Shown in pieces: positions 37,299-56,448 of a stretch of 64,000 bases of DNA. The notes below the pieces were generated by a model. It had not been told where the DNA came from and ran no database searches. It saw only the letters and a program-made list of their open reading frames with translations. The DNA comes from Algibacter sp. Its GTDB lineage: Bacteria > Bacteroidota > Bacteroidia > Flavobacteriales > Flavobacteriaceae. The stretch covers positions 2,447 through 66,446 of the forward strand of contig NZ_JAQWOO010000033.1 of the NCBI RefSeq assembly GCF_029245835.1, read 5' to 3'. The translations under genes and the position numbers were made by a program. The first letter of the stretch is position 1. The number at the start of each line of letters is the position of its first letter.

Positions 37299-38228
37299 AT
37301 GAATTTACGAAGCGAACTAAATAAAGCAGAAGGGTTTAAAAATCTTGAGCTACTTGCAAAACAAGTGGTTGAAGGTTTTATTGCTGGGATGCACAAAAGT
37401 CCGTTTCATGGGTTTTCGGCAGAATTTGCTGAACATAAAATATACAATCAAGGCGAGAGCACACGCCATATCGACTGGAAACTATTTGCTAAAACAGACA
37501 AGCTTTATACAAAGCGTTATGATGATGAAACAAACTTGCGTTGTCATATTATATTAGATAATAGTAGCTCTATGCACTACCCTAAATTGGATTCGTTTTC
37601 TATTGACAGGCTTAATAAGATAGGGTTTTCAGTATTGGCAGCAGCGGCTTTAATGCAAATTTTAAAAAAACAGCGTGATGCTGTAGGTTTGAGTATTTAT
37701 AGTGATAATTATGATTATTATGCGCCAGAGAAAGGTAGCGAGCGCCATCATCAAATGTTATTGAATCATTTAAGTGACGCTGTAATTTCGAAACCTCAAA
37801 ACAAACAAACTGAAACGTATAAATATTTACATGAGATTGCCGAAAAGATTCACAGACGTTCGATGATTTTCTTGTTTACAGATATGTTTCAAACTACAGA
37901 AGATGAGGTTAGGTTGTTTGAAGCTTTAAGGCATTTAAAATATAACAAACATGAGGTGGTTTTATTTCATGTATTTGATAAAGCAAAAGAGTTAAATTTT
38001 GATTTTGATAATAAACCAAAGCGATTTATTGATGTTGAAACTGGCGAGTACATCAACTTATACGCAGATTCTATTAAAGAGAGTTATAGTAAAACCGTTG
38101 ATGCATATTTTAAAGCCTTACGTTTAAAATGTGCACAATACAAAATAAAATATGTTGAGGCAGATATTAATAAAAATTTTAATAACATCCTCACTACCTA
38201 CATGATAGAGCGCCAAAAGTTTGCTTGA
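37299..38228 (+). CDS. DUF58 (vWA-like) protein
   Basis: The GMHKSPFHGFSAEFAEHKIYNQGESTRHIDWK motif is typical of DUF58. I prefer the ATG at 37299 because the track's N-terminal 15 aa overlap a CCCCATGGGG hairpin repeat. Confidence 0.7.
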   Translation: MNLRSELNKAEGFKNLELLAKQVVEGFIAGMHKSPFHGFSAEFAEHKIYNQGESTRHIDWKLFAKTDKLYTKRYDDETNLRCHIILDNSSSMHYPKLDSFSIDRLNKIGFSVLAAAALMQILKKQRDAVGLSIYSDNYDYYAPEKGSERHHQMLLNHLSDAVISKPQNKQTETYKYLHEIAEKIHRRSMIFLFTDMFQTTEDEVRLFEALRHLKYNKHEVVLFHVFDKAKELNFDFDNKPKRFIDVETGEYINLYADSIKESYSKTVDAYFKALRLKCAQYKIKYVEADINKNFNNILTTYMIERQKFA

Positions 38229-38282
38229 TGAAAATTTTATGTAAAAAAGAGAAAAAAGATTTGAGATATAAAAAAAGGCGTG

Positions 38283-38290
38283 TATATTTG
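38283..38290 (+). promoter_or_regulatory. Bacteroidetes-type -7 box TATATTTG for tRNA-Asp
   Basis: It matches TAnnTTTG exactly, 18 bp upstream of the mature tRNA 5' end. Confidence 0.45.
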
Positions 38291-38307
38291 CACCGCAATA
38301 ATGCAAC

Positions 38308-38381
38308 GGTCTGGTAGTTCAGTTGGTTAGAATGTCGCCCTGTCACGGCGAAGGTCGCGGGTTCGAGTCCCGTCCAGACCG
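38308..38381 (+). tRNA. tRNA-Asp (anticodon GTC)
   Basis: Manual cloverleaf. Acceptor GGTCTGG/CCAGACC, D arm GTTC/GAAT, anticodon stem TCGCC/GGCGA with loop CTGTCAC, and T arm GCGGG-TTCGAGT-CCCGT. There is no encoded CCA. Confidence 0.9.
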
Positions 38382-38408
38382 CTAAAAATTGCAAAAGAAA
38401 GCTCTGAG

Positions 38409-38562
38409 AAATTAGGGCTTTTTTTGGTAATTATAACGATGTTGTGTTGTCCTAGAGGTGTCTAGGATGTAGTTTGCCAAATTTATTTTGGTAATCCAAT
38501 GGAAAGCTTTCCTTTTTTCTGTGAAGAAAATTGGGATGCTTTTTTGTTTTAGGGAGGTTTGT
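38409..38562 (+). repeat. Left copy (DR-L) of the ~154-bp direct repeat bracketing the CRISPR-Cas island
   Basis: 38409-38503 is 95/95 identical to 46238-46332. The remaining ~60 bp are similar apart from two short variant patches. DR-L begins 27 bp after tRNA-Asp and supplies the 3' half of the tRNA terminator. Confidence 0.85.
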
Positions 38563-38582
38563 AAAACCTCTGATTCTTCAAA

Positions 38583-38676
38583 AATAAAAAAAAGTCCCAC
38601 CGAAGCAGGACTAAAGATTTTCATCTACGGCATATAGCCTTATTGTGATAAGATTAAAGATTAGAAATTTTAATCT
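38583..38676 (-). ncRNA. tracrRNA (predicted)
   Basis: Read on the minus strand:
- Anti-repeat UUUCUAAUCUUUAAUCUUAUCACAAU (38667-38642) pairs with repeat nt 1-26. All positions pair (three are G:U wobbles) except a central UU/UU mismatch.
- Nexus-like AAGGCUAUAUGCCGU (38641-38627) follows.
- Next comes an AGAU-GAAA-AUCU hairpin.
- An 8-bp UUCG-loop terminator (38612-38593) plus a U8 tract ends the RNA.
- The upstream -7 box TACATTTG lies at 38688-38681.
The 5' end is estimated. Confidence 0.75.
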
Positions 38677-38777
38677 GTTTCAAATGTAGTAAAAAGATTT
38701 CTTATTTACAATGATGGAAACCGTAAAGTTTTATTCTATTTATTTGTAGTTTTAGGACTATAAAATAAATACAGGTT

Positions 38778-41700
38778 ATGAGTAAAATATTAGGATTGGA
38801 TTTGGGGACCAATAGTATTGGCTGGGCGATAAGAGACAGTAATTTAGGTAATAAAAATCAAATATTACATTCTGGAGTATTAATATTTCCACAAGGTGTG
38901 GGCGAAGAAAAGGGTGTAGAATTCTCATTAGCATCAGAACGTACAAAACACAGGGCATCAAGAAAGTTATATAGAAGGCGCAAATGGCGAAAAATAGATA
39001 CGCTTAAAATTTTAATAGAAAATAATATGTGTCCGCTAACTATAAACGAGTTAAATGTTTGGGGAACATATAAAAAGGGCAAGGAAAATAAATATCCAAC
39101 CGAAGACGAAGAATTCAGGGAATGGTTAAAGTTAAACCCTTATGAATTAAGAAGAAAAGCTTCAGAAGGAACTGTGTCAAATAATGAATTAGGTAGAGCC
39201 TTGTATCATATTTGTGAAAGAAGAGGTTTTAAAAGCGGTAGAAAAGATGCCGATACAGGAAAGGATATGGAGGTTTATATTAAAGAAAAAGAAGAAAGAG
39301 GCGACCAAACTCTTGGAGCTTATTTAAATAGCCAATTAGAGGCTGGAATTGAAGTGAGAAAAACAAAATACCAAGCCGATGACCAAGAAGTTAATTCTTC
39401 TCGTATTAGTTATATAGAAGAATTTGATGTTATTGTTAAAAAACAAAACCTTGATAAGGACTTAACTGAAAAATTGTTTCATGCTATCTTTTTTCAAAGA
39501 CCCTTAAAATCCCAAAAAGGAACAATTGGTAAGTGTACTTTAGAACCAACCAAACCAAGATGTGCAGTAAGTCATCCATTGTATGAAGAGTTTAGAATGT
39601 ACCAATTTCTTAATTCAATCAAAATTAAGAATACGTTTGGCAATGATTCTCAGTTTCATTTTTTAACTGAATTCCCACATTATTTTGAAATCGTAAAACG
39701 ATTATTTTTCAGAAAAAGCAAACCCAATTTTAAGTTTGCTGATATTTCAAAAGCCATAAATAAAGAAGCAAAAAAAGGAAATGAACATTTTGAATGCAAT
39801 TATAAGGACAAATACCCAATAGTTGGCAGTCCAACGTTAAGCCAATTTATAAATCTATTAGCTGCCGAAGATTGGGAAGATTGTAAAACGAAAATTAAAA
39901 ACAGTTATAAATTATCAAACAATAAATTAACGGATGAACTCATTGACGAACTATGGCATACCTTGTTTTTTGCTGGCGATTTTGTAAATGATATCACATC
40001 AAAAAAAGTAAAAGATTTTATTCGAGAGCGTTACAATGTAACTGAGGAACAAATTGAAACCTATGAAGCTATAAACTTAAAACAAGGCTATGCATCATTA
40101 AGTAGAAAAGCAATTAAAAATATATTACCATTTTTGAAAGAGCATATTATTTACTCTCATGCTGTTTTTTTTAGTAACGTGGAAGCCATTGTTGGTAAAG
40201 ATGTCTGGAAATCAAATAACGAGTTTATTCAAAATACTATAATTGATATAATTACGTGTTATAAAGAAGATAATTTAATAGCTGATATCGTTAATGGTTT
40301 GGTAGGCGATTTTATTAAGGAGTATGACAATGCGCATTTAGATTATGTTTTAGATGAAACTGATAAAAAAAATGTAGAAGAAAAGATTATTTCCTTTTAC
40401 GGAACATCAAAATGGAATGCTTTAAGCGAAGCGAAAAAAGAAAAATTTCAAAAAGAAATTGAAACACTTTTTCAAAAACAATTACAAAAACGAAGAACAG
40501 GAGGTTATTATTTACCCAAAGCCAGATTAGACGAAAAAATTAAAGACTTTTTGATAAGTGAATATAAGGTAACAAAAGAACAGGCAGGTAAATTATACCA
40601 TCCTTCTGCTATTGATATTTATCAAGACAGTTTATCAGGCGAATTAGAAAGTCCGTTTACAACATCAGTTCGCAACCCAATGGCAATGCGTACTTTATAT
40701 CAATTAAGGAAGCTTGTAAATACACTTTTAGAAGAAGATAAAATTGATGCTGACACAAAAATAATTATAGAACTTGCAAGAGAACTAAACGATAAGAACA
40801 AACGTTTAGCGATAGAACGCTATCAAAGAGAGCGTGAAGCTGAAAATAAAAAATATAGAACCCTTTTAGAGCCACATGCAAAAAAAGCCAAAAGTAATGT
40901 TACAGATCTTGATATTGTAAAATATAGACTATGGATAGAGCAAAACGGAAAATGTTTATACACTAATGAAACTATTGGAATAGCCGATTTGTTTGGTTCT
41001 AATCCTAAATTTGATATTGAACATACTTTTCCAAGAAGTAAATCTTTTGATAATTCGTTGGCAAACAAAACATTGTCTGAAAAGAAATTCAATCAAATAA
41101 AAGGCAGTAAAATTCCACAAGAATTACCTGCAAACTATTTGCAAAATGCACTACATAATATTGCGCATTGGAAAGAAAACATAGAAGCTTTAAAAGAAAA
41201 GATTGATATTCAAAATTATTATTCGGCAAAAGCATCTACGGTCAATGATAAGAATAAGGCTATTCAATTAAGGCATTATTTAAGATTACAGTTGGATTAT
41301 TGGAGAGATAAACACAGACGTTTTACAGATGAGGAAATTCATTTTAGGTTCAAAAACAGTCAGTTGGTAGATACAGGTGTCATTACCAAATATGCTAAAT
41401 TATATCTACAAACTTTATTTAAAGATGTATTTCCTGCAAAAGGAACTATGGTTTCAGATGTTAGGAAATCTTGGGGCTTAAAAGAAAAAGACAGAAATTT
41501 ACATTATCATCATGCCATTGATGCTATAGTATTAACCTGCATGACTAAAGATATAAGGGAAAAACTTGCCGCATCATTCCTAGAAGCTGAAACATTACAT
41601 AAACGTGAAAAATTTTTAGTCGAAAAACCTTGGGATAATTTTACCGAAGATGTTCTGGACTTACAAGAAGATATTTTGGTTGTACATAAACATTCCGATA

Positions 41701-42887
41701 AACTTTTAGAACATACTAAACGAAAATTGAGAAAACGTGGTAAGATTCAGCCAAAAGTTGATTTTGCTAAAAATGAAGAAGGTAAATATATTCTTGATGA
41801 TAAAGGTAAAAAGATTATAAAAAAATATTATTATCAAAAGGATAAAAACGACAAATTAATTCCTCAAAAAGGAAAGAAACTCTCTCAAAAAGAATGTGTC
41901 AATAAAATAGAAGGAGTAGATTTTTTTAAACTTGAAATTAACGGAAGCTCAATTAATTATGAATTTGTAAAAAATAGAAATAAAGATATAGTCTATAAAA
42001 AAGAATTCTTGTTTGAGCAAGGTCAAGGCATACGTAATTCGTTGCATAAGGATACTTTTTATGGTGCCATTGAACGAGAAAACGAAAAAGAAGAAAAAGA
42101 AATATGGTTTGTTATTAGAAAACCTGTAGATAGTTCATTTTCTGAATCAGATGTTAAGAATATTGTTGACGAAGGCATAAAAGAACGTATTTATAAACAT
42201 GGGCTTAAAAATATTCGTACGGATGAAGGATTTATAGTGTTACCTGAAGAGGGTAATAAAAAACCAATGCTTATTAAACGTATTCGTCTTAAAACAAGGT
42301 TAAACAATTTACCAAAAATTAAAAAGCAAAGTCATACCTCTCAAAAAAGCAAAAAACCGCATAAGGAATATTACTATGCAACTTTAGAGAACATTTTTGC
42401 GATGGCAGTTTATGAAGCAGAGAATAGTAAAGGAAAAAAAATAATAGCACATCAAACCATATCAGCCTTTGATACTGCAAAACATAATCAAGGTAATCAA
42501 AATATGGAAGTGCCTGTAGAAGATAATATGATTAAAAATAAAGGAAAATCCCCCGAAATATTATTGCCATTAAGTTATGTGCTTAAAGTAAACCAAATGG
42601 TGTTGTTTTATGAAAAAAGCAGGGAGGAATTAAAACAATTGAATAAAAAAGAATTAAGCAATAGGCTTTATAAAATAACACAATTTGAAAGTGAAGGTAA
42701 TTATGCTAGAATCCAATTAAAGCATCATATTCAAGGAGGAGCTGATAAAGATTTAAAAAAAGAATCTTCGTTAGATTTTGAAAGACCAGCTCAAAAATTA
42801 AGAATAAGTTTAAGTAATTTTAAAGCAGCTAAAGAAAATGTGGATTTTAAAATGTCTGCCTCTGGAAAAATAGATTTTGCAAAATAA
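38778..42887 (+). CDS. cas9: Cas9, type II-C
   Basis: 1369 aa. RuvC-I LGLDLGTNSIGWA, Arg-rich bridge helix RKLYRRRKWRK, RuvC-II IIIELAREL, HNH DIEHTFPRS...NKTL...N, and RuvC-III HHAIDAIV. There is no csn2 or cas4 in the locus. Confidence 0.95.
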   Translation: MSKILGLDLGTNSIGWAIRDSNLGNKNQILHSGVLIFPQGVGEEKGVEFSLASERTKHRASRKLYRRRKWRKIDTLKILIENNMCPLTINELNVWGTYKKGKENKYPTEDEEFREWLKLNPYELRRKASEGTVSNNELGRALYHICERRGFKSGRKDADTGKDMEVYIKEKEERGDQTLGAYLNSQLEAGIEVRKTKYQADDQEVNSSRISYIEEFDVIVKKQNLDKDLTEKLFHAIFFQRPLKSQKGTIGKCTLEPTKPRCAVSHPLYEEFRMYQFLNSIKIKNTFGNDSQFHFLTEFPHYFEIVKRLFFRKSKPNFKFADISKAINKEAKKGNEHFECNYKDKYPIVGSPTLSQFINLLAAEDWEDCKTKIKNSYKLSNNKLTDELIDELWHTLFFAGDFVNDITSKKVKDFIRERYNVTEEQIETYEAINLKQGYASLSRKAIKNILPFLKEHIIYSHAVFFSNVEAIVGKDVWKSNNEFIQNTIIDIITCYKEDNLIADIVNGLVGDFIKEYDNAHLDYVLDETDKKNVEEKIISFYGTSKWNALSEAKKEKFQKEIETLFQKQLQKRRTGGYYLPKARLDEKIKDFLISEYKVTKEQAGKLYHPSAIDIYQDSLSGELESPFTTSVRNPMAMRTLYQLRKLVNTLLEEDKIDADTKIIIELARELNDKNKRLAIERYQREREAENKKYRTLLEPHAKKAKSNVTDLDIVKYRLWIEQNGKCLYTNETIGIADLFGSNPKFDIEHTFPRSKSFDNSLANKTLSEKKFNQIKGSKIPQELPANYLQNALHNIAHWKENIEALKEKIDIQNYYSAKASTVNDKNKAIQLRHYLRLQLDYWRDKHRRFTDEEIHFRFKNSQLVDTGVITKYAKLYLQTLFKDVFPAKGTMVSDVRKSWGLKEKDRNLHYHHAIDAIVLTCMTKDIREKLAASFLEAETLHKREKFLVEKPWDNFTEDVLDLQEDILVVHKHSDKLLEHTKRKLRKRGKIQPKVDFAKNEEGKYILDDKGKKIIKKYYYQKDKNDKLIPQKGKKLSQKECVNKIEGVDFFKLEINGSSINYEFVKNRNKDIVYKKEFLFEQGQGIRNSLHKDTFYGAIERENEKEEKEIWFVIRKPVDSSFSESDVKNIVDEGIKERIYKHGLKNIRTDEGFIVLPEEGNKKPMLIKRIRLKTRLNNLPKIKKQSHTSQKSKKPHKEYYYATLENIFAMAVYEAENSKGKKIIAHQTISAFDTAKHNQGNQNMEVPVEDNMIKNKGKSPEILLPLSYVLKVNQMVLFYEKSREELKQLNKKELSNRLYKITQFESEGNYARIQLKHHIQGGADKDLKKESSLDFERPAQKLRISLSNFKAAKENVDFKMSASGKIDFAK

Positions 42888-42927
42888 ATCATTTTGGTGT
42901 ATATTTACACCACTAAATTTAATTATT

Positions 42928-43173
42928 ATGGCAAGGCAAAGTATCACATTAGCCAAACAAAATGATGAATGGCTAAAGAATCAAGTAGCAGAGCAAGAAT
43001 TTTCTAGCAAAAGCGAGGCTGTTAACTATCTCATTAAACAAGCACGAAATCAAGAAAAATATTATGATTTTGTGAGAATGAAAATAGAAAAAGGAGAGAA
43101 TAGTGGCTTTGTAAAAAAGCAATCTAGAGAAGATATGTTAGTTGAGTTTAAACAAGATTTACCTAATGTATAG
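42928..43173 (+). CDS. parD: ParD-type (RHH/CopG) antitoxin
   Basis: 81 aa from the ATG at 42928: MARQSITLAKQNDEWLKNQV...SKSEAVNYLIKQARNQE, an RHH pattern like ParD1/3/4. The gene starts 40 bp after the cas9 stop. Confidence 0.7.
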   Translation: MARQSITLAKQNDEWLKNQVAEQEFSSKSEAVNYLIKQARNQEKYYDFVRMKIEKGENSGFVKKQSREDMLVEFKQDLPNV

Positions 43174-43450
43174 CTATCATTTAAGTAGCGAAGCAAAAGA
43201 AGATTTAAGGCGATTATATTATTATGGAGTTATAACGTTTGGAATTGTTCAAGCGGACAAATATTTTAATATGATACATGATTGTTTTGATCGAATTGAG
43301 TCAAATCCTTTTTTATTCCCATGCGCCGAACACATAAAGAGTGGTTTTCGGTATTGTGTTGCAGGAGCGGATACTATATACTATAAAATCAAAAAAAATA
43401 ATAGAATAGAAATTATAACGATTATTGGAAAACAAGATTTCCCAAAATAA
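43166..43450 (+). CDS. parE: ParE/RelE-family toxin
   Basis: 94 aa from the ATG at 43166, which overlaps the parD stop by 8 nt (ATGTATAG). The pattern YHLSSEAKEDLRRLYYYG...NPFLFPC...GFRYCVAGADTIYYKI...IEIITIIG is typical of ParE. Confidence 0.7.
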   Translation: MYSYHLSSEAKEDLRRLYYYGVITFGIVQADKYFNMIHDCFDRIESNPFLFPCAEHIKSGFRYCVAGADTIYYKIKKNNRIEIITIIGKQDFPK

Positions 43451-43484
43451 GTAGTTCTTTGGCATAAGACCTTTCTGTCTTAAA

Positions 43485-43499
43485 CAACCAAACCACAAC
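43485..43499 (+). repeat. Inverted partial CRISPR repeat in the leader
   Basis: CAACCAAACCACAAC is the reverse complement of GTTGTGGTTTGgTTg. It matches repeat nt 1-11 perfectly and 13/15 overall. It lies 38 bp upstream of repeat 1. Confidence 0.7.
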
Positions 43500-43537
43500 G
43501 AAAAATTGACCTTCTCAATTTTTTGCAACGATTTTTC

Positions 43538-44825
43538 GTTGTGGTTTGATTAAAGATTAGAAAACACGATATTGTTAAGAAGAAAAGACTTAACCGTAGC
43601 GGTGTTGTGGTTTGATTAAAGATTAGAAAACACGATATTTAACGGTAACGCCTTTCCCTGTTAATGACAGTTGTGGTTTGATTAAAGATTAGAAAACACG
43701 ATATTAAAAGAACGAAAGGCAGCACAATGGGAAACGTTGTGGTTTGATTAAAGATTAGAAAACACGATATTTAAAGACAATGAATTTGATTTAGCAATAG
43801 GTTGTGGTTTGATTAAAGATTAGAAAACACGATATTAAATTCGGCGTATATCTGTATTGTCTCGTCGTTGTGGTTTGATTAAAGATTAGAAAACACGATA
43901 TTAGACTAAAAGACAATCTATTAACAGCGGTTGTTGTGGTTTGATTAAAGATTAGAAAACACGATATTAATATTGTGCATAAATGAGCGTTGCTTTTAGT
44001 TGTGGTTTGATTAAAGATTAGAAAACACGATATTGAGCAACGTATTTTGATGGGATTAGTTTTGTTGTGGTTTGATTAAAGATTAGAAAACACGATATTT
44101 AGTATTAGGAAGCTCAACATCGAAAGTCAGTTGTGGTTTGATTAAAGATTAGAAAACACGATATTAAGCGAAAACGGAAAGATACATCCAACGCAGTTGT
44201 GGTTTGATTAAAGATTAGAAAACACGATATTTCTAGCACCTGCCAAATAACCACGCAAAAAGTTGTGGTTTGATTAAAGATTAGAAAACACGATATTATT
44301 TAAAAAATACTATCCTAATGGTTGTGAGTTGTGGTTTGATTAAAGATTAGAAAACACGATATTAGAGAAAGAAAACGAGTGTTTATATTGTGGGTTGTGG
44401 TTTGATTAAAGATTAGAAAACACGATATTTGTGTATAATTTATGTGCTTCTTCAAGGCTGTTGTGGTTTGATTAAAGATTAGAAAACACGATATTTGTTT
44501 CTATTTGCTTGGTTCGTGATCGGCTGTTGTGGTTTGATTAAAGATTAGAAAACACGATATTTTAATATTCTTCATAATTAACAAAAACTTTGTTGTGGTT
44601 TGATTAAAGATTAGAAAACACGATATTTGTACTAATTCAGCACCTTCTATTTTAACAGTTGTGGTTTGATTAAAGATTAGAAAACACGATATTACACGCC
44701 AAAAAGGTAATTGATAGTATTATGTTGTGGTTTGATTAAAGATTAGAAAACACGATATTAACAGATAATTCTACAAAATCATCACCGTGGTTGTGGTTTG
44801 ATTAAAGATTAGAAAACACGATATT
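43538..44825 (+). CRISPR. CRISPR array: 20 x 36-bp repeat GTTGTGGTTTGATTAAAGATTAGAAAACACGATATT, 19 spacers (17 x 30 nt, 2 x 29 nt)
   Basis: Counted by hand, and the total length checks (20x36 + 568 = 1288 bp). All 20 repeats are identical, including both terminal ones. I infer plus-strand transcription from the strand and structure of the tracrRNA. Confidence 0.97.
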
Positions 44826-44880
44826 AGTTGGCTTGTTACCTTCTAATAATCAAAAGTATAAAGAGAAATATCGTTTAAAA

Positions 44881-44927
44881 AAATGCTTCTTTTTTGCAGT
44901 GATAAGGCAAGATTGAGGCATTTTTTT
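44881..44927. terminator. Bidirectional terminator between the array and cas2
   Basis: AAATGCTTC...GAGGCATTT imperfect stem, with an A-run before it and a T7 run after it. It sits between the convergent array and cas2. Confidence 0.45.
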
Positions 44928-44929
44928 GT

Positions 44930-45259
44930 TTAAAACAATTCTAGTTGTGTTGGTTGCGGTTCTTTTGGCATTTCTGATTTTCCCCAAAAATTCATAATAT
45001 TTCCAAATTGTTTATCAGTAATTCTTAAAATACTTACTTTACCAAATGGTGGTAAGAGTTTTTTAATCCGTTTTTCATGGGCATCTGCACTTTCACTACT
45101 GGCACAATGCCGCATATAAACAGAGTATTGCATCATGGTAAAGCCATCTTTTAATAAATTTTTTCTAAAGCCAGAAGCATTTTTACGGTCTTTAGCAGTA
45201 TCAGTTGGTAAATCAAAAAAAACAAATAACCACATAATTCTATAGCCGTTTAGTTCCAT
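44930..45259 (-). CDS. cas2: Cas2
   Basis: 109 aa. The MWLFVFFDLPT...YSVYMR pattern is typical of type II Cas2. It overlaps the cas1 stop. Confidence 0.9.
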   Translation of the reverse strand: MELNGYRIMWLFVFFDLPTDTAKDRKNASGFRKNLLKDGFTMMQYSVYMRHCASSESADAHEKRIKKLLPPFGKVSILRITDKQFGNIMNFWGKSEMPKEPQPTQLELF

Positions 45260-46134
45260 AAGTTCGGATACTTAATTTTCTTTCTTTTTCCAGAATAGCA
45301 TTGCTGTAATGAACTTGCTGTTTTTTGAAGCGCAACCATTAAGGGGCTTTTTTCATCTTTAAAATATACCGTTCTAGTTAGGATAGATAGTATTTCAGAC
45401 TTTATTTCTGTTGTTAGTTCTTGCTCGTCATAATTTTGCATTATATGATGAACGATTTCATCAACAATAGGTCTAAAAGGTTCCATAATATCATCTGCAA
45501 GTGCAAACGCATTATATTTACTTTTATGGTGAATACCTAATGTATTGAGAAGTCCGCTACCTGATAAAGCTCTGGCAGTTGCAGCTCTTAAAATGGCATA
45601 TCCATAATTTAAAAAATTATTAGGGTAATTACCAAATCGCTCTCTTTTAAAATCTATTTCAAAAAAAGCTTTCCAATAAAAGTTAGCAGCAACAGCTTCC
45701 ATGTTTGAGGTGTCACCACTCAAAACTTTACTTGCTAGATAGTCAAACTTGTTTTTTGTTTGTGTTATTTGTTCTAGTAAGATCCCTTGATTTTTAACTT
45801 TTTCAATAACAGTTTGTTGCCATAATTGTTTTTTAAGAGGTAAGCTAGCATTAATCTGATGTTTAAATATTTCTTGTTGTATGTGATGACTGTTTAAGTT
45901 TAAAAACATACCGTTAGGAAGGTGCTTATTATCACAAATAATACAAGCACAATTATTATTTATTAGTTTATTTAGTGCAGGAATACTTATATATGTTTCG
46001 TTATGGTCTATAACTAAATAACCAATATCTTCAATAGGTATCGTTTTATTTCTGTTTTCTGATTTTATTACCAGTTGCTCATTGGTGGTTGTAATAGTAC
46101 ATTTATTTGTGAATAGAAGTGTTTTTTTTATCAT
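45250..46134 (-). CDS. cas1: Cas1 (type II)
   Basis: 294 aa. N-terminal beta domain, a C-terminal helical domain with NYGYAILR and ALADDIMEPFRP motifs, and adjacency to cas2. Confidence 0.9.
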   Translation of the reverse strand: MIKKTLLFTNKCTITTTNEQLVIKSENRNKTIPIEDIGYLVIDHNETYISIPALNKLINNNCACIICDNKHLPNGMFLNLNSHHIQQEIFKHQINASLPLKKQLWQQTVIEKVKNQGILLEQITQTKNKFDYLASKVLSGDTSNMEAVAANFYWKAFFEIDFKRERFGNYPNNFLNYGYAILRAATARALSGSGLLNTLGIHHKSKYNAFALADDIMEPFRPIVDEIVHHIMQNYDEQELTTEIKSEILSILTRTVYFKDEKSPLMVALQKTASSLQQCYSGKRKKIKYPNLWN

Positions 46135-46237
46135 GAATTAACAGGTGTTAGTAATTATTATAAACCTTGCTAATAAATAATTCAATAATTAGGGAGCAAT
46201 AAATATACTAAATTAGGTTTAGAGATAAGTTATTTTC

Positions 46238-46392
46238 AAATTAGGGCTTTTTTTGGTAATTATAACGATGTTGTGTTGTCCTAGAGGTGTCTAGGATGTA
46301 GTTTGCCAAATTTATTTTGGTAATCCAATGGATAAGGGTTCCTTTTTTCTTTATAGAAAATTGGGATGCTTTTTTGTTTTAGGGAGGTTTGT
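46238..46392 (+). repeat. Right copy (DR-R) of the direct repeat bracketing the CRISPR-Cas island
   Basis: See DR-L. DR-R lacks the upstream half of the tRNA-terminator stem that DR-L pairs with. Confidence 0.85.
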
Positions 46393-46519
46393 TTCTACCT
46401 GCTAACCAATTTTTAAATACTAATTGATAAAAAAGTGACATTAACAATTTCGGCTATTTAATAGTATATTTATAGAAATTTTAGATTTACAAAATTTTAT
46501 AACTAGCTAAAACTAACAC

Positions 46520-47836
46520 ATGAAGTATTTAATATATCAATCTCGTTATGTCATCTTTTCTCTTTCTTTTTTGTTGTTGTGTAGTTGTAATGCTCAGAGT
46601 AAAAAGAAATCCAATACTAATGTCACTAAATCCGAAATTCGTCTAACCGATGAAGGTTATCGTTTTTTTTTAAATGGTAATCCTTTTTACGTCAAAGGTG
46701 CTGGTGTTTCAGATATAAGTAGTCTTGAAACCCTGCATAAGCATGGGGCCAATGCCTTTAGAACTTGGAGTACTGATAATGGGAGAGAGAACCTAGACAA
46801 AGCTGATGAACTTGGTTTGAAGGTGATGATGGGTATTTGGGTAGGTTTAGAACGTCATGGATTCGATTATGATGATGAAAAAGCTGTACAGAGGCAATTA
46901 GAAAGTATTCGTGAACAAGTATTAGAACTAAAAGACCATCCTGCATTGATAATATGGGGAATAGGAAATGAAATGAACCACCATTCCAAAAACCCTAAAG
47001 TTTGGGATGCAGTGAATGAGATATCTGAAATGATTCATGAATTAGATCCGCATCATCTAACAACCACATCTTTAGCAGGAATAGATAAGAAGAATGTTGA
47101 TTTGATTAGCCATAGAGCATCTGATTTAGATTTCTTAAGTATTCAGTTATACGCAGCAATAGAAATACTTCCAGAGCTTATTACAAAATCTAATTATAAA
47201 GGGCCTTTATTGATTACTGAATGGGGAGCGACAGGTTATTGGGAAGTGGGTAAAACAGAATGGGGAGCACCATTGGAGAATAATAGCTCTGTAAAAGCAG
47301 ATTTTTATCGTAGTCGTTATGAAAAGTCTATTGTATCCCAATCACAACAAGTAATAGGTTCTTTCGTATTCCTTTGGGGGCAAAAGCAAGAACGGACACC
47401 CACTTGGTTTGGGATGTTTATGCCCGATGGAAATGAAACGGAATCGGTAGATGTTATGCATTATGTGTGGAATGGAGAATGGCCTGAAAACCGCACACCT
47501 AGGTTGATTGATTTTACCTTAGACGGAAAGCGGGCTGTGGACAATATTAAGTTGAAAGTAGGAAGTAGCTATTCTGCTCAAGTAAAAGCTTCTGATTATG
47601 ATGGAGATGAATTGATTTATCGTTGGGAAATAATGGAAGAAAGCCAATCAAACAAATCAGGAGGAGATGCAGAGTATATCCCTGATGTTATTAATGGCCT
47701 ATTTCCAGATAATACTGATAGCTCTACTTCGTTTTTAGCTCCTTCTCAACCAGGTGCTTATCGCTTATTTATATATGTAGAAGATGGTAATAGACATTCA
47801 GCACATGCCAACATCCCATTTTGGGTAGAGCACTAG
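46520..47836 (+). CDS. Clan GH-A (TIM-barrel, GH2/GH5-like) glycoside hydrolase lipoprotein with C-terminal Ig-like domain
   Basis: 438 aa. Lipobox LLCSC, acid/base motif GIGNEMN, and nucleophile motif LITEWGA. The exact family is not assignable by eye. Confidence 0.6.
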   Translation: MKYLIYQSRYVIFSLSFLLLCSCNAQSKKKSNTNVTKSEIRLTDEGYRFFLNGNPFYVKGAGVSDISSLETLHKHGANAFRTWSTDNGRENLDKADELGLKVMMGIWVGLERHGFDYDDEKAVQRQLESIREQVLELKDHPALIIWGIGNEMNHHSKNPKVWDAVNEISEMIHELDPHHLTTTSLAGIDKKNVDLISHRASDLDFLSIQLYAAIEILPELITKSNYKGPLLITEWGATGYWEVGKTEWGAPLENNSSVKADFYRSRYEKSIVSQSQQVIGSFVFLWGQKQERTPTWFGMFMPDGNETESVDVMHYVWNGEWPENRTPRLIDFTLDGKRAVDNIKLKVGSSYSAQVKASDYDGDELIYRWEIMEESQSNKSGGDAEYIPDVINGLFPDNTDSSTSFLAPSQPGAYRLFIYVEDGNRHSAHANIPFWVEH

Positions 47837-47986
47837 GTTTTTAGAATTTTATGTGATTTTTTTGCTTTTTTAAATGAAAGTAAGCCATATTACATGCAAT
47901 CTTTTTTTAGTCAAGAAGTTATAAGGATAGTTTAAAAGATGTTGAGTTGATTACGCCAAAAGCGTGATGTATTTGTACCAAAGTAA

Positions 47987-48052
47987 TTTGGTAATCCAAT
48001 GGATAAGGGTTTCTTTTTTCTTTATAGAAAATTGGGATGCTTTTTTGTTTTA
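47987..48052 (+). repeat. Partial (3' ~66 bp) copy of the DR / terminator module
   Basis: TTTGGTAATCCAATGGATAAGGGTTTCTTTTTTCTTTATAGAAAATTGGGATGCTTTTTTGTTTTA. It carries the DR-R variant patches. Confidence 0.75.
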
Positions 48053-48256
48053 CGTAAGGTTTACTTATTTGTTAAAGCTTTAAAAGTAGAAATAAAAATC
48101 ATTTTTAATTTTTACTGATTTTCATCATAAAATATTAAAAATTAACAGATTAAACGAAATTTATAGGTATTATAAATTATCAATTCGTTGTGTTTTAAAA
48201 GATGATAAAACATCTTTTTTGGCTACATTTAGGGCTTAATTTTAAAACATAATTTT

Positions 48257-49897
48257 ATGGAACACATATATAGTAAATGGCACCACCCCTATACGCCAGC
48301 TAAAAAGTATAAAAAGAAAGTAGCTTACTTTAGTATGGAGTTTGGTATAGACCAAACTTTTAATATTTACTCTGGAGGACTTGGTTTTCTCGCCGGATCA
48401 CACATGCGTTCGGGTTTAGAGTTAAAGCAGAATATGATTGGTATTGGTATGCTTTGGAAGTATGGTTATTACGATCAGGCAAGAAATGAAGACCAAACAT
48501 TAAAAACAGAATTTAATGAAAAGCATTTTGATTTTCTAGAAGATACTGGAATAGAAGTAGAAATAAAGCTGCATGATAATCCGCATGTAAAAGTTAGGGC
48601 TTATGTTTTAAAACCTGAAATCTTTGGAACTGTACCTATGTATTTTTTAAGTACAGATGTTGATGGTAATGACCATTTATCAAGAACTATTACAAATCAC
48701 TTATACGATAAAAATCCAGTAACAAGAGTTTCTCAAAGTATTGTTTTGGGTATTGCTGGAGCTAAAGTTGTAGAAGCATTAGGTGGTGCAGATACGTATC
48801 ATTTAAATGAAGGGCACGCATTACCCGCATTTTATTATTTAAGAGATAAGGGCGTAACCAAAGATCAAATGGTATTTACTACGCATACGCCCGAGAAAGC
48901 AGGAAATGAAGAACGAGATGCGCGTCATCTTAACAGATGTGGCTTTTTTGGGAGAACATTTTCTGAAGATGAGTTACATAGTGAAATGGTAAACGGAGGG
49001 ATGATTAATTATACTGTTTCTGCACTACGAATGGCTAGAAAGGCAAACGGCGTATCAAAACTTCATGCTATAGTTGCCAACGATATGTGGAAGGATTATG
49101 ATGGTATTTGCGACATTATTCCAATTACCAATGCCCAAAATCAAAAATTTTGGCAAGATGAAATAATCAAGACATCTTGGATGAAAAAGGATGCTGTTAT
49201 TTATAATCAAAGAAAATTACAGTTAAAAACCGAACTTTTTGAAGAGGTTTATAAACAAACAGGAAAGCAATTTGATCCTAATGTTTTAACTATTGTATGG
49301 GCAAGACGTTTTGCAGCTTATAAAAGAGCAGATTTATTATTGCGTGATTATGACCGTTTTAAAAGGTTAATTACTAACGATAAATATCCTGTGCAGATTA
49401 TTTGGGCAGGAAAACCGTATCCGTTTGATTATGGTGCTATAGATGTGTTTAATCATTTAGTACATCAATCTAAGCATGAGCCCAATCTTGCAGTGCTTAT
49501 TGGTTATGAAATAGATGTGTCTAAAAGGCTAAAATGTGGTTCTGATGTTTGGCTAAATACTCCGAGAATTACTCGCGAAGCTTCTGGAACAAGTGGTATG
49601 ACGGCTGCAATGAATGGCTCTGTAAATCTATCTACAGATGATGGTTGGATTCCAGAATTTAAAAAAGATGAACAAAATTGCTATGTAATTCCTGCTTTAG
49701 ATCATCATTTACCAACTTGGGATCAAGATAAAATAGATACAGATAATTTGTACCATATATTAGAAAACAAAGTTATTCCAACATATTATGAAAATCCTGA
49801 TAAATGGCAGGACATTGTGTTTAAAGCCATGGATGATGTGATTCCTGAGTTTACAACACAAAGAATGGCAGATGATTACTATAAGAAGTTGTTCTAA
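48257..49897 (+). CDS. Alpha-glucan phosphorylase (GT35)-like protein with substituted PLP-lysine motif
   Basis: 546 aa. AYFSMEFGI, IYSGGLGFLAG and FTTHTP are family hallmarks. However, EASGTSGMK reads EASGTSGMT (Thr codon ACG at 49601-49603), and GDHLKS reads GSHMRS. Confidence 0.7.
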   Translation: MEHIYSKWHHPYTPAKKYKKKVAYFSMEFGIDQTFNIYSGGLGFLAGSHMRSGLELKQNMIGIGMLWKYGYYDQARNEDQTLKTEFNEKHFDFLEDTGIEVEIKLHDNPHVKVRAYVLKPEIFGTVPMYFLSTDVDGNDHLSRTITNHLYDKNPVTRVSQSIVLGIAGAKVVEALGGADTYHLNEGHALPAFYYLRDKGVTKDQMVFTTHTPEKAGNEERDARHLNRCGFFGRTFSEDELHSEMVNGGMINYTVSALRMARKANGVSKLHAIVANDMWKDYDGICDIIPITNAQNQKFWQDEIIKTSWMKKDAVIYNQRKLQLKTELFEEVYKQTGKQFDPNVLTIVWARRFAAYKRADLLLRDYDRFKRLITNDKYPVQIIWAGKPYPFDYGAIDVFNHLVHQSKHEPNLAVLIGYEIDVSKRLKCGSDVWLNTPRITREASGTSGMTAAMNGSVNLSTDDGWIPEFKKDEQNCYVIPALDHHLPTWDQDKIDTDNLYHILENKVIPTYYENPDKWQDIVFKAMDDVIPEFTTQRMADDYYKKLF

Positions 49898-49923
49898 TTA
49901 AAAAACACATCAATTAAAGCATT

Positions 49924-49967
49924 CCTTTTTTTTATAAAGAAGATAGGGATGCTTTTTTGTTTTAGGG
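49924..49967 (+). repeat. Degenerate copy of the terminator module
   Basis: AAAGCATTCC...GGGATGCTTTTTTGTTTTAGGGA. The hairpin plus T-run lies directly after the phosphorylase-like gene. Confidence 0.55.
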
Positions 49968-50242
49968 AAAATTCGTCTTATGGTTTTGTGGATGTTTTTA
50001 GATTTTTCTTTTGGGATTAATAGGCAAAAATTCCATCAACTATTAAAAATATTATCTTGTTTTTAGGGACTTAAATTATTTGTGGCGTGTTATAAAAGCA
50101 TATAGAGTTTATATATTTAAATACGTAAGTGACCTTTCAGAAATAACGGTGTCTTATTATTGCTATTAATCAATAAAAGTTTTGCGAGGAAAAGCATACT
50201 TTTCTGAGAGAGAGTTACAAGACATTGTAGCTCTTTTTTTGT

Positions 50243-53959: not shown

Positions 53960-53991
53960 TTAAATACATACGGTTTTTTTCTTTTTTGCAC

Positions 53992-54042
53992 TTCGTCGAT
54001 GAAAAATGATGTATTTCGTCGAATATTTCTCTTTTCGTCGAA
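53992..54042. promoter_or_regulatory. Three copies of the 9-bp palindrome TTCGTCGAA/T
   Basis: The copies lie at 53992-54000 (TTCGTCGAT), 54015-54023 and 54034-54042 (TTCGTCGAA, a palindrome about the central T). Spacing is 23 and 19 bp. Confidence 0.35.
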
Positions 54043-54324
54043 AAAATTATATTTTATGTAGCCTTGTATTATACTTTAGTACTTCCTTAACCGAGCGACC
54101 CATTATTTCCCTAAGTTCAGTTAAGAAGAATTAATCCACATTTGACTTTTAAAGTCATATTCCCTCAAAAAAATTTTAGAGTCGCTCTACATATTACATG
54201 TATTCGGTTTTAAGTTAATTATCCATTTTTCCCTTAGCTACGATTTTGATTTCAAAATCTTGGTTCAAAATGCTATTCCAAAAGAATAGAGAAAAATATG
54301 TAAAACCTTAAAATCAAATTTAAT

Positions 54325-54480: not shown

Positions 54481-54501
54481 GTTTATAGAAATTTTATATT
54501 T

Positions 54502-56439: not shown

Positions 56440-56448
56440 CGACAAATT

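Follow-up and report, generated by a model that had tools for sequence, protein, structure and literature searches.

The window, by which the whole 64-kb stretch of DNA analysed here is meant, contains a CRISPR-Cas9 module placed directly after a tRNA gene. The anchor of this hotspot is tRNA-Asp(GTC) on the plus strand (38308-38382; ARAGORN, with an Rfam tRNA match of 70.6 bits). It is followed on the same strand by the hairpin AGCTCT-GAGAAATT-AGGGCT with a U7 run (38400-38426), and in the loop of this hairpin, 27 nt past the tRNA, a direct repeat begins. Its two plus-strand copies, here called E(L) (38409-38562) and E(R) (46238-46392), are 154 and 155 bp long and 96% identical over 155 columns. 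They agree without a mismatch in three blocks: 38409-38503 with 46238-46332 (95 bp), 38509-38520 with 46339-46350 (12 bp), and 38525-38562 with 46355-46392 (38 bp). A preliminary description of this DNA had reported such a repeat around the module, with an identical first 95 bp, and the alignment bears this out. A 44-nt core probe of the repeat finds only the two flanking copies in the 64 kb, with matches in 0 of 100 shuffles. The left copy supplies the 3' half of the post-tRNA hairpin, and the right copy carries this half without any partner, as had also been described. Upstream of E(R) there is neither a 5' half-hairpin nor a tRNA fragment, the alignment score being no better than that of shuffles.

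The 7,675 bp between the copies (38563-46237) hold exactly tracrRNA, cas9, parDE, the CRISPR array, cas2 and cas1, in agreement with the earlier account; one further called gene, a minus-strand ORF of 70 aa (38412-38624) with no Pfam match, overlaps the repeat itself. The tracrRNA gene (38588-38672, minus strand, ends approximate) includes an anti-repeat (38641-38667), a nexus-like hairpin and an intrinsic terminator (38593-38612). The anti-repeat was detected as a plus-strand direct repeat of the CRISPR repeat, the fold and the terminator scan agree with it, and a tracrRNA occurs at the same place in three related loci (L142, L222 and L224). The cas9 gene (38778-42887, plus strand, 1369 aa) is type II-C-like, with Pfam matches to HNH_4, RuvC_III and Cas9_a, and a gap in blastn alignments indicates about 82 extra residues (~41750-42013) relative to the closest homologues. 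It is followed on the plus strand by a parD-like antitoxin gene (42928-43173, possible TTG start at 42877; Pfam ParD_antitoxin, at threshold) and a parE-like toxin gene (43166-43450, ORF start 43142 or 43166; Pfam ParE_toxin, E = 1.1e-8), and homologues of both occupy this position in over 10 related loci. The CRISPR array (43538-44825, plus strand) consists of 20 identical 36-nt repeats (GTTGTGGTTTGATTAAAGATTAGAAAACACGATATT) and 19 spacers, and spacer content varies among samples of the same population. The genes cas2 (44930-45259; Pfam CRISPR_Cas2) and cas1 (45250-46134; Pfam Cas_Cas1) are on the minus strand.

The repeat is a copy of a conserved RNA-like gene of about 110 nt with three hairpins, element E, which trails tRNA-Asp in Flavobacteriaceae. 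The predicted architecture comprises single-stranded GUUGUGUUG, a P1 hairpin, GUAGU, a P2 hairpin, a CCAAUGG box, a long interrupted terminator hairpin and a U-tract. E follows tRNA-Asp in more than 60 species of the family, and in at least 64 loci the tRNA lies 85-178 nt upstream of the conserved 19-mer of E, in the conserved synteny dnaE-trx-(clpP)-DUF58. Alignments show that the post-tRNA hairpin is kept in the tRNA-linked copies of other species. Covariation is strong and argues for a structured RNA: in 22 sequences pairing is preserved in 97.8% of cells, with compensatory changes at 14 of 31 pairs, a level reached by 0 of 500 shuffles. In 88 model matches the corresponding values are 96.6% and 22 of 31 pairs, and pairing drops to 45-66% when the partner is slid by 1-3 columns. 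Box and hairpins are present in 97 of 124 matches in the collection; the other 27 are simple terminators from other phyla, unrelated to E, in which the 19-mer tail also occurs. The 55-nt 3' module hardly varies from genus to genus. E has no match in Rfam and looks like an RNA family not described before, and it is presumably transcribed. What the preliminary description called a repeat family is a conserved structured RNA-like gene and more than a repeat.

E(L) fits the RNA model at 38441-38550 (109 bits) and folds accordingly, and its position is orthologous in at least 64 species. That the left copy is native is upheld by 64-69 sampled loci in which tRNA-Asp and the element share the synteny given above. 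E(R) matches the model at 46270-46380 (94 bits). Both additional copies mentioned earlier, near 47987 and 49924, were judged real. E3 (47941-48051, 96 bits) has a CACGCC-type P1, and its diverged homology reaches ~47909-48063. E4 (49871-49963, 42 bits) is the most degraded, its recognisable part being the terminator module alone (49916-49968). All four copies lie on the plus strand of one locus spanning 11.6 kb. Identity is 95% between E(L) and E(R), 87% between E(R) and E3, and about 65% between E4 and the others. E(R) is composite, with a 5' part as in the left copy and a 3' part as in E3, so that the suggested recombination among family members accounts for the patchy divergence. The 3' module of E(R), with its box GGATAAGGGTTCC and loop CTTTATAG, is of the distal variant, as is that of E3.

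The plus-strand genes between these copies are read as cargo: a glycoside hydrolase with a GH2-type TIM barrel, in the slot after that of the Cas9 module, follows E(R) (46520-47836; Pfam), and a phosphorylase-like protein of 546 aa precedes E4 (48257-49897; Pfam Phosphorylase). The last gene specific to the lineage encodes a TonB-dependent receptor-like outer-membrane protein (50243-52750, minus strand; Pfam), and beyond it conserved synteny sets in again. On its right the hotspot is flanked by conserved genes for a LacI-family regulator, a TPR histidine kinase and a response regulator (52958-57123, plus strand). In Litoribaculum L113 the LacI gene comes immediately after E, in L063 and L105 it is close to E, and no domains are met more often downstream of tRNA-Asp-E than those of histidine kinases and response regulators.

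The Cas9 module is independent of E. None of the 71 loci related through Cas1 adjoins E, and where the module occurs elsewhere it carries no copy of the element. Between the array and the stop codon of cas2, a terminator-like element (44827-44932, plus strand) gives a 27-bit match to the E model, a weak match that recurs there in eight other loci; it was rejected as a family member, being a part of the module with only a faint likeness to the E terminator. In two species the module (Cas9 84% identical, CRISPR repeat identical) lies between methylmalonyl-CoA mutase and ECF sigma-factor genes, with no E and no long flanking repeats.

The empty site that the preliminary description predicted is present in three TARA scaffolds (L211-L213) of a related organism. 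They contain DUF58, tRNA-Asp, one E, the same E-glycosidase spacer as in the window and the glycosidase, with 83% identity to the window for the glycosidase and 88% DNA identity for the DUF58 gene. The gap from DUF58 to the glycosidase is 461 bp, compared with the 462 bp expected after removal of the insert and one repeat. The suggested insertion of a CRISPR-Cas cassette at a tRNA-adjacent hotspot, or cassette exchange by recombination, is supported. No excision was seen, because every long-enough contig of the population carries the insert.

The earlier statement that no recombinase is present is true of the window. Pfam lists give no integrase or transposase between 27254 and 57836, no homologue of the integrase family of this site occurs in the whole window, and no arm-like GGTGT(C/A)C repeats follow its E copies. 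In relatives, however, a family of integrative elements with tyrosine integrases uses the tRNA-Asp/E locus as its chromosomal attachment site, and in at least 13 loci an integrase gene or a fragment of one is found 100-400 nt past E. Full-length genes follow E at 110-400 nt in L095/L215, L125, L038, L127, L216 and L219-221, two other genes separate them from E in L217/L218, and fragments occur in L092, L068, L079, L107 and L094, as well as near the E array of L226. Each of four integrases that were looked up led to DUF58-tRNA-Asp-E. The proteins have Arm-DNA-bind_5, SAM_5 and catalytic domains. Loci with integrases or their remnants have three GGTGT(C/A)C arm-like repeats after E, and these are absent from empty sites. 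Because the site serves integrases in relatives, a decayed island made by an integrase is no less likely than cassette exchange without a recombinase.

Arrays of E with cargo are not limited to the window. The E-cargo-E arrangement is found in nine other loci. In Aestuariivivens sediminis L226 there are four to five copies, of which one follows a tRNA fragment and two bracket a glycosidase; the copy downstream of this gene has the P1 type of E3 and retains the whole post-tRNA spacer. An element with both the integrase of the site and the Cas9 module was not found.

With about as much confidence for as against, the Cas9 module is read as filling the most recent slot in an island array that accreted serially at the tRNA-Asp/E integrase site and has since decayed. 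In relatives, integration leaves an island between direct repeats of the tRNA 3' end, spacer and E. Repeated tRNA-proximal integration, followed by decay of integrases and interiors, would produce same-strand E arrays with unrelated cargo. The window would then read tRNA-Asp, E(L), the Cas9 module from tracrRNA to cas1, E(R), glycosidase, E3, phosphorylase-like gene, E4, TonB receptor and the LacI/kinase/regulator flank, with the module in the newest slot next to the tRNA. The identity gradient, from E(L)-E(R) through E(R)-E3 to E4, fits a latest event at this end. The slot would have been created by such an integrase, and the module would have come as cargo or replaced earlier cargo. An integrase, the three arm-like repeats and a tRNA fragment are missing from the slot, either through loss or because they were never there in cis, and this integrase-less remnant could be deleted only if the two identical stretches of 95 bp recombined in the RecA manner. 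Several observations do not sit well with this account. Other decayed islands (L036, L079, L092, L085 and L107) keep the traces of an integrase element that this slot lacks, the left boundary of the repeat lies in a hairpin loop, and the grouping of the E 5' part by genome and of the 3' module by position is left unexplained. The 95 bases shared by E(L) and E(R) include the P1 and P2 hairpins, which vary between species, and such identity is unpredicted by one native copy and one from the element, unless gene conversion followed.

Capture through E without an integrase is the less likely reading, yet a rival to be taken seriously. A fragment with E and adjacent CRISPR-Cas genes from a donor like Confluentibacter lentus would have entered a tRNA-Asp-E-glycosidase genome, the 3' module serving as portable homology. 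E would be duplicated either by circularisation and a RecA-mediated single crossover within E (Campbell type) or by homology-facilitated illegitimate recombination. C. lentus L072 indeed has E directly before a related module (Cas1 83%, Cas2 91%) and no integrase. The near-invariance of the 3' module, the missing integrase traces, the arbitrary left boundary and cargo-free tandem duplications of E (L084, L076) also agree with capture. The E(L) 3' module is common in other genera, and E(R) retains the CTTTATAG inner loop of the empty-site E in L211, which is the pattern that a crossover within E, linking one native half to one incoming half, would leave. However, capture leaves unexplained why E(R) shares its distal-type box with the distal repeat of another species' integrase island, and why integrases and remnants recur at exactly this junction. 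It requires a circularised or one-sided illegitimate intermediate, none of which has been observed, and the identical P1 and P2 still call for gene conversion or a same-species donor. An improbable alternative reverses the order: CRISPR-Cas was resident after tRNA-Asp-E, with cas1 beside LacI, and a block from E(R) through glycosidase, E3, phosphorylase and E4 to the TonB receptor was inserted later, E(R) belonging to this sugar-gene block and the bracketing being a by-product. The metagenomic relative L142 (Cas9 93%, Cas1 88%, LacI 90%) suggests this, as its homology to the window ends at 46210, 28 bp before E(R), and restarts at 52844, with only ~270 unrelated bp and no E between; the E-spacer-glycosidase unit of L211 and the bracketed glycosidase of L226 also agree. 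Yet L211, the closest relative at DUF58, has tRNA-Asp, E and glycosidase contiguous, so that the simplest history is insertion of the CRISPR segment there. L142 is a distant genome (LacI region 76.5% DNA identity) with an unassembled left junction and a mosaic module (cas9 93%, ParD 63%, ParE 52%), which indicates module exchange instead of shared ancestry of the arrangement, and the identity gradient also speaks against the reversed order. The chance flanking of the module by a high-copy dispersed repeat or generic terminator, to which the four window copies and the 27 terminator matches might point, is extremely improbable. It is already contradicted by the confinement of copies to one strand of one locus, and to one 8-kb stretch in each complete chromosome scanned, by the linkage to tRNA-Asp, by a junction predicted within 1 bp and by the species-variable hairpins in the shared 95 bases.

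One intact island, that of Algibacter L216, is arranged as tRNA-Asp, E, integrase, two genes, and an 18-nt tRNA 3' fragment with spacer and E. In intact islands of relatives, the T-loop and 3' end of tRNA-Asp belong to the repeat, and the left boundary in L216 is in the T-loop, unlike that of the window 27 nt past the tRNA. The proximal and distal E variants of L216 match E(L) and E(R): the E(L) 3' module is 99% identical to that of the integrase-adjacent copy, and E(R) and E3 have the derived box of the distal copy (93%). Modules of this type, parDE included, are not new and in other species occupy other positions; parDE in a CRISPR-Cas9 module has been reported in F. columnare (PMC8092290). 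On the favoured reading, the Cas9 island is an ordinary kind of genomic island whose integrase has been lost.

The direct repeat of the window occupies 38409-38562 and 46238-46392, and its two copies agree in identical blocks of 95, 12 and 38 bp. The left copy starts 27 nt past the tRNA-Asp(GTC) gene (38308-38382), inside the loop of the post-tRNA hairpin, while the right copy lacks the other half of this hairpin and the distal repeat includes no tRNA 3' fragment. A 44-nt probe from the repeat core matches only these two sites in the window, and 0 of 100 shuffles match. The 7,675 bp between the copies contain a tracrRNA on the minus strand (anti-repeat 38641-38667, terminator 38593-38612), cas9 (38778-42887), a ParD/ParE pair (42877-43450), a CRISPR array with 20 identical 36-nt repeats (43538-44825) and, beyond the array on the minus strand, cas2 and cas1. 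The preliminary description of this locus had reported the repeat, the bracketed content and the two hairpin halves, and it was accurate in each detail checked.

Each repeat copy encloses a conserved three-hairpin RNA-like element, here called E. The window contains four copies, named from the tRNA outward E(L) (38441-38550), E(R) (46270-46380), E3 (47941-48051) and E4 (49871-49963, 3' part only). They all lie on the plus strand, span 11.6 kb and have no counterpart elsewhere in the window; E3 and E4 confirm the additional repeat-family members that had been proposed further to the right. No terminal inverted repeats were found on E in the window. A possible remnant of the tRNA 3' end and spacer upstream of E(R) is not significant, as 664 of 1000 shuffles score equally well. 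A 70-aa open reading frame (38412-38624, minus strand) lies wholly over E(L) and the spacer; it is called as a gene in public assemblies, has no Pfam match and is probably a spurious call.

The earlier observation that no recombinase or Tn7-like gene accompanies the module is borne out: none appears in the Pfam annotation lists for 27254-57836, which also contain no integrase, and the integrase family found at this site in relatives gives no tblastn match anywhere in the window. Contig JAQWHF010000003.1, from the metagenome-assembled genome GCA_029249515.1, is 100% identical to the window over at least 36520-57836. Neither empty sites nor excision junctions occur among 47 population contigs with identical flanking proteins, and every population contig that is long enough carries the insert. 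Short-read population contigs break inside tRNA-Asp/E or E(R) (ends of L005-L009, starts of L014-L019). These are assembly breaks at the repeat and no sign of an empty site, and the odd start of one such contig (L014, 1-51) is a fold-back assembly artefact of E.

The distribution of E was examined by scanning its most conserved 19-mer (GGGATGCTTTTTTGTTTTA) in one genome per species, which covered at least 120 stretches and gave at least 124 matches. Among the matches listed, 97 have the adjoining box CCAATGRRARGCTTTCC together with the upstream hairpins, and all of these belong to Flavobacteriaceae; the other 27 of the 124 listed are unrelated simple terminators. The E-bearing genera include Winogradskyella, Psychroserpens, Bizionia, Gelidibacter, Algibacter, Tamlana, Mariniflexile, Flavivirga, Formosa and Xanthomarina. 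The 19-mer begins 85-178 nt past tRNA-Asp(GTC), on the same strand, in at least 64 loci, and a DUF58 gene lies directly upstream in at least 69, within the conserved order dnaE-trx-(clpP)-DUF58-tRNA-Asp. Because of this linkage and synteny, E(L) is the orthologue of an old chromosomal feature, which agrees with the earlier view of the left copy as the native one.

Across dozens of Flavobacteriaceae genera (loci L020-L139, L211-L221 and L226), E measures ~95-145 nt and has three hairpins. In single-sequence folds, the order from 5' to 3' is a single-stranded GUUGUGUUG, hairpin P1, usually GUAGU, hairpin P2, CCAAUGG, a long interrupted terminator hairpin and U6GU4. Each member folds independently into this one architecture. 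The sequences of P1 and P2 vary among species with the pairing kept, and the long interrupted hairpin with U6GU4 at the 3' end of every member constitutes an intrinsic terminator. A simple terminator scan misses this hairpin because internal loops interrupt its stem. Similarly, a plain MAFFT alignment of 84 E copies analyzed with RNAalifold recovered the terminator alone, because the variable hairpins were misaligned, a problem solved by a curated 22-sequence seed and a covariance model. In the curated alignment, the fraction of paired cells is 97.8% and two-sided changes occur in 14 of 31 pairs, a result matched by none of 500 shuffles; sliding the partners by 1-3 columns lowers pairing to 41-64%. 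The covariance model R1 built from this alignment gives 88 matches in 100 loci, with 96.6% of cells paired and compensatory changes in 22 of 31 pairs (366 cells), figures that lean toward the structure because the 88-match alignment was fitted to the model. The independent single-sequence folds agree with the R1 structure.

Few small RNAs are known in Flavobacteriaceae. No Rfam 15 family lies over E, either at the gathering threshold in the whole window or at an E-value of at most 5 in 38200-50200, and a limited literature search found no published description of it. The same window contains an S16-Flavobacteria ribosomal-protein leader (RF03138, 58 bits; 28683-28718, minus strand) upstream of rpsP. 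A conserved small open reading frame in E (ATG GAA AGC ... TAG) was considered and rejected because many members have in-frame stops. By eye, no clear Bacteroidota-type promoter was recognized for E. E is put forward as a candidate new family of structured RNAs. The most suitable description is that of a candidate small RNA gene or of a structured tail on the tRNA-Asp transcript. Two side observations concern its sequence. In Aestuariivivens sediminis (L226), the copies at 2828-2942, 7669-7782 and 9521-9628 have an extra GC-rich hairpin (GCCTGCCCGCTGGCAGACAGGC) within the terminator before the U-tract. The single-stranded start of E in the window (GUUGUGUUG, 38441-38449) is also similar to the first bases of the CRISPR repeat (GUUGUGGUUUG, 43538-43548); this likeness is probably due to chance, because many genomes have E and no such CRISPR locus.

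The preliminary description had proposed that relatives should contain an empty site with one repeat copy, and such a site is present. The closest homologue of the window glycosidase on long contigs (P0002, 83% identical) is found in three TARA scaffolds (L211-L213), where DUF58, tRNA-Asp, a single E and the glycosidase follow one another and the spacer from E to the gene matches that of the window. The gap between DUF58 and the glycosidase is 461 bp, versus 462 bp predicted by removal of the insert and one repeat. An unoccupied site of another form is seen in Litoribaculum (L113), where the LacI regulator found at 52958 in the window directly follows E; in two other loci (L063 and L105) it lies 1.4 kb past E. 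Across species, the commonest downstream neighbours are a TPR histidine kinase and a response regulator, located at ~54.7-57.1 kb in the window. These neighbours were assessed from Pfam counts of the 25 commonest families in 117 open reading frames downstream of tRNA-Asp-E. Judging from the states of the site in relatives, the stretch from 38563 to ~52900 is lineage-specific DNA between E and a conserved right flank.

Integrases are absent from these 25 commonest families, and for this reason they were sought by tblastn. The probe was an open reading frame directly after E in Seonamhaeicola (L092), which encodes a truncated Arm-DNA-bind_5 domain. The search revealed full-length integrases of ~400 aa with Arm-DNA-bind_5, Phage_int_SAM_5 and Phage_integrase domains, belonging to a family of more than 100 clusters at 60-87% identity. 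Full-length genes are present at tRNA-Asp/E in L095/L215, L216, L217-L221, L038, L125 and L127, starting 110-400 nt past E on the same strand in L095, L125, L038 and L127; fragments occur in L092, L068, L079, L107 and L094 and near the E copies of L226. Four members of the family were looked up, and each one is located at this junction, just past DUF58, tRNA-Asp and E. Direct GGTGT(C/A)C repeats, three in number and located 20-80 nt past E and before the integrase start, recur in L216, L219, L217, L038, L125, L092, L079, L085 and L036; they are found neither at empty sites nor after any E copy of the window. Among the genes of these islands are phage- or satellite-like ones (HTH_3, AAA_24, DUF3871, VapE-like, GIY-YIG). 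An example is a small complete island in another Algibacter sp. (L216), which consists of tRNA-Asp, E (9798-9907), the integrase, two genes, and an 18-nt tRNA-Asp 3' fragment with spacer and a second E (13741-13851), so that its direct repeat extends from the tRNA T-loop to the end of E. A distal repeat with a tRNA 3' fragment is found in L216 and in one copy of L226, and not in the window. Likewise, the integrase gene lies inside the island beside one repeat in L215-L221, L038, L125 and L127, and is absent in the window. The tRNA-Asp/E locus is used by a specific integrase family, and integration duplicates the whole RNA-like gene.

Arrays in which E copies flank cargo also occur in L055, L092, L076, L079, L108, L099, L084, L036 and L094. 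The copies within one genome are far more alike than those of different species. The left boundary of the repeat varies among these loci (tRNA 3' end, +7, P1, P2), whereas the right boundary always falls just past E, and the cargo includes a TauE exporter, a sigma-70 factor, and FG-GAP, T9SS and DUF1214/1254 proteins. In A. sediminis (L226), a 17-kb stretch contains four to five E copies, one of them after a tRNA-Asp 3' fragment, together with a glycosidase homologue (76%) that has E on both sides and an integrase fragment nearby. The array of the window runs from tRNA-Asp through E(L), the CRISPR module, E(R), the glycosidase, E3, a phosphorylase-like gene, E4 and a TonB receptor to the conserved flank. 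Within this array, E(L) agrees at 99% in its 3' module with the integrase-adjacent E of L216, while E(R), E3 and the distal E of L216 resemble one another at 93% and have in common a derived box in which GGATAAGGGTTCC replaces GGAAAGCTTTCC. Consequently, the Cas9 segment is flanked by the same pair of E variants as the intact integrase island of L216. The 5' parts of E cluster by genome (100% in the window, 96% in L216, 82-85% between species) but the 3' modules cluster by position, and in two species the changeover lies at the CCAAUGG box. No simple model fits this pattern, which points to crossovers or gene conversion within E.

The module itself is of a recurrent type. Pfam annotation of 38778-42887 (HNH_4, RuvC_III, Cas9_a, Cas9_RuvC) shows that Cas9 has its HNH domain and split RuvC domain. 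Cas9, Cas1 and Cas2 are the only cas genes between the repeats, accompanied by ParD and ParE, with no csn2 or cas4. Because the anti-repeat matches the CRISPR repeat on the plus strand, with a terminator hairpin following, the minus-strand tracrRNA transcript is complementary to the crRNA repeat. The order cas9-parD-parE-array, followed by cas2 and cas1 on the minus strand, recurs in many of 71 loci with relatives of Cas1. The Pfam ParD_antitoxin and ParE_toxin pair has detected homologues at the same position, between cas9 and array, in more than 10 of these 71 loci. Loci with the pair include L140, L142, L145, L149, L165, L185, L197, L198, L200, L206, L210, L222 and L224 (on the opposite strand in L224). 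ParDE is conserved in II-C loci of this type across many Flavobacteriia. Where the same Cas9 module lies at an alternative chromosomal site (L222 8809-9785, L223 3761-4737), it has an Xre-like/RES toxin-antitoxin pair directly upstream of tracr/cas9 in addition to parDE, so that the locus is flanked by two addiction modules. The Cas9 of the window (1369 aa) has ~82 extra residues relative to its closest relatives (1286-1287 aa, 80-93% identical elsewhere), and the gene looks as if it had received a ~264-bp insertion in its C-terminal third, at ~41750-42013. A conserved terminator-like element (44827-44932), located in the interval from the last CRISPR repeat to the cas2 stop codon, matches the E model weakly (25-29 bits); it occupies the same position in L142, L157, L165, L166, L172, L182, L222 and L224, and the match arises from its hairpin and U-tract tail. 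Spacer content differs between metagenomic samples of one population (43772-44327 versus L001/L010; array ends of L012 and L013), which suggests that spacer turnover is ongoing.

No E was found beside the 71 Cas1-relative loci, where the weak terminator-like match inside the module was the only hit. In two species with a Cas9 84% identical to that of the window and an identical CRISPR repeat, the module lies between methylmalonyl-CoA mutase and ECF sigma-factor genes, with neither E nor a long flanking repeat. It follows that the module moves between chromosomal sites independently of E and that E belongs to the hotspot. In Confluentibacter lentus (L072, NZ_NIHE01000002.1, 408001-416000), a related module lies directly after E (Cas1 83%, Cas2 91%, Cas9 only 35%). 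In a metagenomic relative (L142; Cas9 93%, Cas1 88%, LacI 90% identical to the window), cas1 is followed by LacI, and homology to the window ends at 46210 and restarts at 52844. This gap indicates that the CRISPR and sugar-gene segments occupy the hotspot as separable units. Alignments in search of an E remnant to the right of cas1 scored no better than shuffles in either L142 or C. lentus.

The origin of the Cas9 slot can be considered in the light of these observations. Chances are about even that it represents a decayed integrase island within a serially accreted array. The flanking pair of E variants corresponds to that of L216, and the identity of copies drops away from the tRNA (95% for E(L)-E(R), 87% for E(R)-E3, 82% for E(L)-E3, ~65% for E4), as expected from serial insertion at the tRNA-proximal end. 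The opposite sequence of events, in which the sugar block would have been inserted after the CRISPR module was already resident, is unlikely. Against a decayed island stand the lack in the slot of an integrase homologue, of GGTGT(C/A)C repeats and of a tRNA fragment, as well as the start of the repeat in the hairpin loop instead of the T-loop. Under this explanation, the integrase, arm-like repeats and tRNA fragment would have been removed when the module replaced earlier island content. E could also have been duplicated with no integrase at all, either by a RecA-dependent single crossover through E or by homology-facilitated illegitimate recombination, a possible route that is considerably less probable than island decay. 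A crossover with a circularized fragment would account for it, the donor being a genome with the module already beside E, as in C. lentus.

A further proposal is that E-bounded segments, including the complete Cas9-ParDE-CRISPR module, are exchangeable cassettes. A segment would be excised as a circle with one E and reinserted at the E locus of another member of the Flavobacteriaceae. This could occur if the tRNA-Asp/E-specific integrases of co-resident elements acted in trans, or if RecA used the 55-nt 3' module of E, which is nearly invariant. E-glycosidase(-E) units are found in three species within different arrays, and proximal and distal E variants are common across species, both of which favour such exchange. 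However, the T-loop part of the tRNA is missing from the distal copy, and neither excision nor polymorphism is seen in the population. Both ends of the Cas9 segment are E copies of the type that flanks the L216 island, and mobilization in trans is doubtful because the T-loop, the probable place of crossover, is missing from the distal repeat. Exchange of cassettes is improbable, and a decayed integrase island remains the preferred origin.

The arrangement works like a tRNA-linked genomic island array with tandem accretion and decay. That CRISPR-Cas systems are island cargo beside tRNA genes is already known, as is the II-C/parDE module. The new points are that the flanking repeat constitutes an entire conserved RNA-like gene unmatched in Rfam 15, that a specific integrase family uses tRNA-Asp/E, and that arrays bounded by E recur in different genera. 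In this Flavobacteriaceae chromosome, the cargo of a tRNA-linked integration hotspot is a whole Cas9 system with ParDE embedded in it. Other species have the same module at an unrelated site, in keeping with what is known of CRISPR-Cas as island cargo that moves horizontally. E itself, a candidate small RNA, is widespread: it covaries strongly and is tightly linked to tRNA-Asp in dozens of marine Flavobacteriaceae genera. Together with the integrase, it provides an easily recognized marker for variable regions in these genomes, and tRNA-Asp/E may serve as a defined chromosomal insertion site for genetic tools. If segments were exchanged as cassettes, a small RNA gene would be the recombination site of an array shuttling defence and sugar-use genes between genera.

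Several known systems are available for comparison. In the type II-C locus of Flavobacterium columnare, parDE separates cas9 from the array (Hoikkala et al. 2021, PMC8092290; Ravantti et al. 2019, PMC6895309). This locus has the same gene set as the window (cas9, parD, parE, array, cas1, cas2) and a putative tracrRNA upstream of cas9. The window differs in having cas2-cas1 on the opposite strand beyond the array, in its genus and chromosomal context, in the E-bounded slot beside tRNA-Asp and in the ~82 extra amino acids of its Cas9. CRISPR-Cas carried on genomic islands or mobile elements is described, for example in Vibrio, by McDonald et al. (2019, PMC6360697). Both cases present a complete locus as horizontally acquired cargo, whereas the window has no mobility genes, is of type II-C and not of the common Vibrio types, and is flanked by RNA-like repeats.

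The integron, Tn7-like CRISPR-associated transposon and MITE/REP dispersed-repeat readings were tested and rejected. Like integron cassette arrays, the window has unrelated genes between same-strand structured repeats of ~100-150 nt with covarying stems. Unlike them, it has neither IntI nor attI, and E lacks the R/L cores (GTTRRRY/RYYYAAC) and instead has a U-tract terminator and long conserved sequence blocks. The slots between E copies also contain segments of several genes, which lie on either strand and have promoters of their own, and the cognate recombinase in E-bearing relatives is an arm-binding phage-type integrase. Tn7-like CRISPR-associated transposons differ in that the window has no tnsA/B/C or tniQ, its Cas9 keeps the HNH and RuvC domains, and its flanks are direct repeats of an RNA-like gene, not transposon ends. 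REP and MITE repeats differ from E, which is confined to one locus in 64 kb and, among the matches listed, to one stretch per complete chromosome. As for the element itself, 3'ETS-leuZ of E. coli is a tRNA-linked 3' external transcribed spacer RNA. Both are short RNA or RNA-like elements directly downstream of a tRNA, on the same strand and ending in an intrinsic terminator, whereas E has three covarying hairpins and its own preceding hairpin and U-run, and the two have no sequence relation.

The closest parallels are found among genomic islands. Integrases reportedly have sublocation preferences in tRNA and tmRNA genes (K. P. Williams, 2002). The window resembles tRNA-targeting islands with tyrosine integrases in its position beside a tRNA gene, its direct-repeat flanks, the empty site in relatives, and the tandem accretion and decay. 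The integrase beside the tRNA-proximal repeat and the distal repeat that begins in the tRNA T-loop, typical of such islands, are present in relatives (L216) and not in the window, which has no integrase, arm-like repeats or tRNA fragment. Unlike that of usual tRNA islands, the repeat is unusually long and includes a whole downstream structured RNA-like gene beyond the tRNA 3' end. Cis-mobilizable elements (CIMEs) and tandem accretion at one att site are described for ICESt1/ICESt3 of Streptococcus thermophilus. The window differs from these in taxon and integrase family, and no cognate integrase is known in its genome, of which the window was scanned. The Cas9 segment nevertheless resembles an integrase-less, CIME-like remnant, a label that reads 'remnant of' and not 'member of' because the segment has no integrase, arm repeats or crossover-bearing distal repeat. 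With CIMEs it has in common segments bounded by att-type repeats and free of recombination genes, their tandem placement at the site of integrase-bearing relatives, and an array with a gradient of repeat decay.
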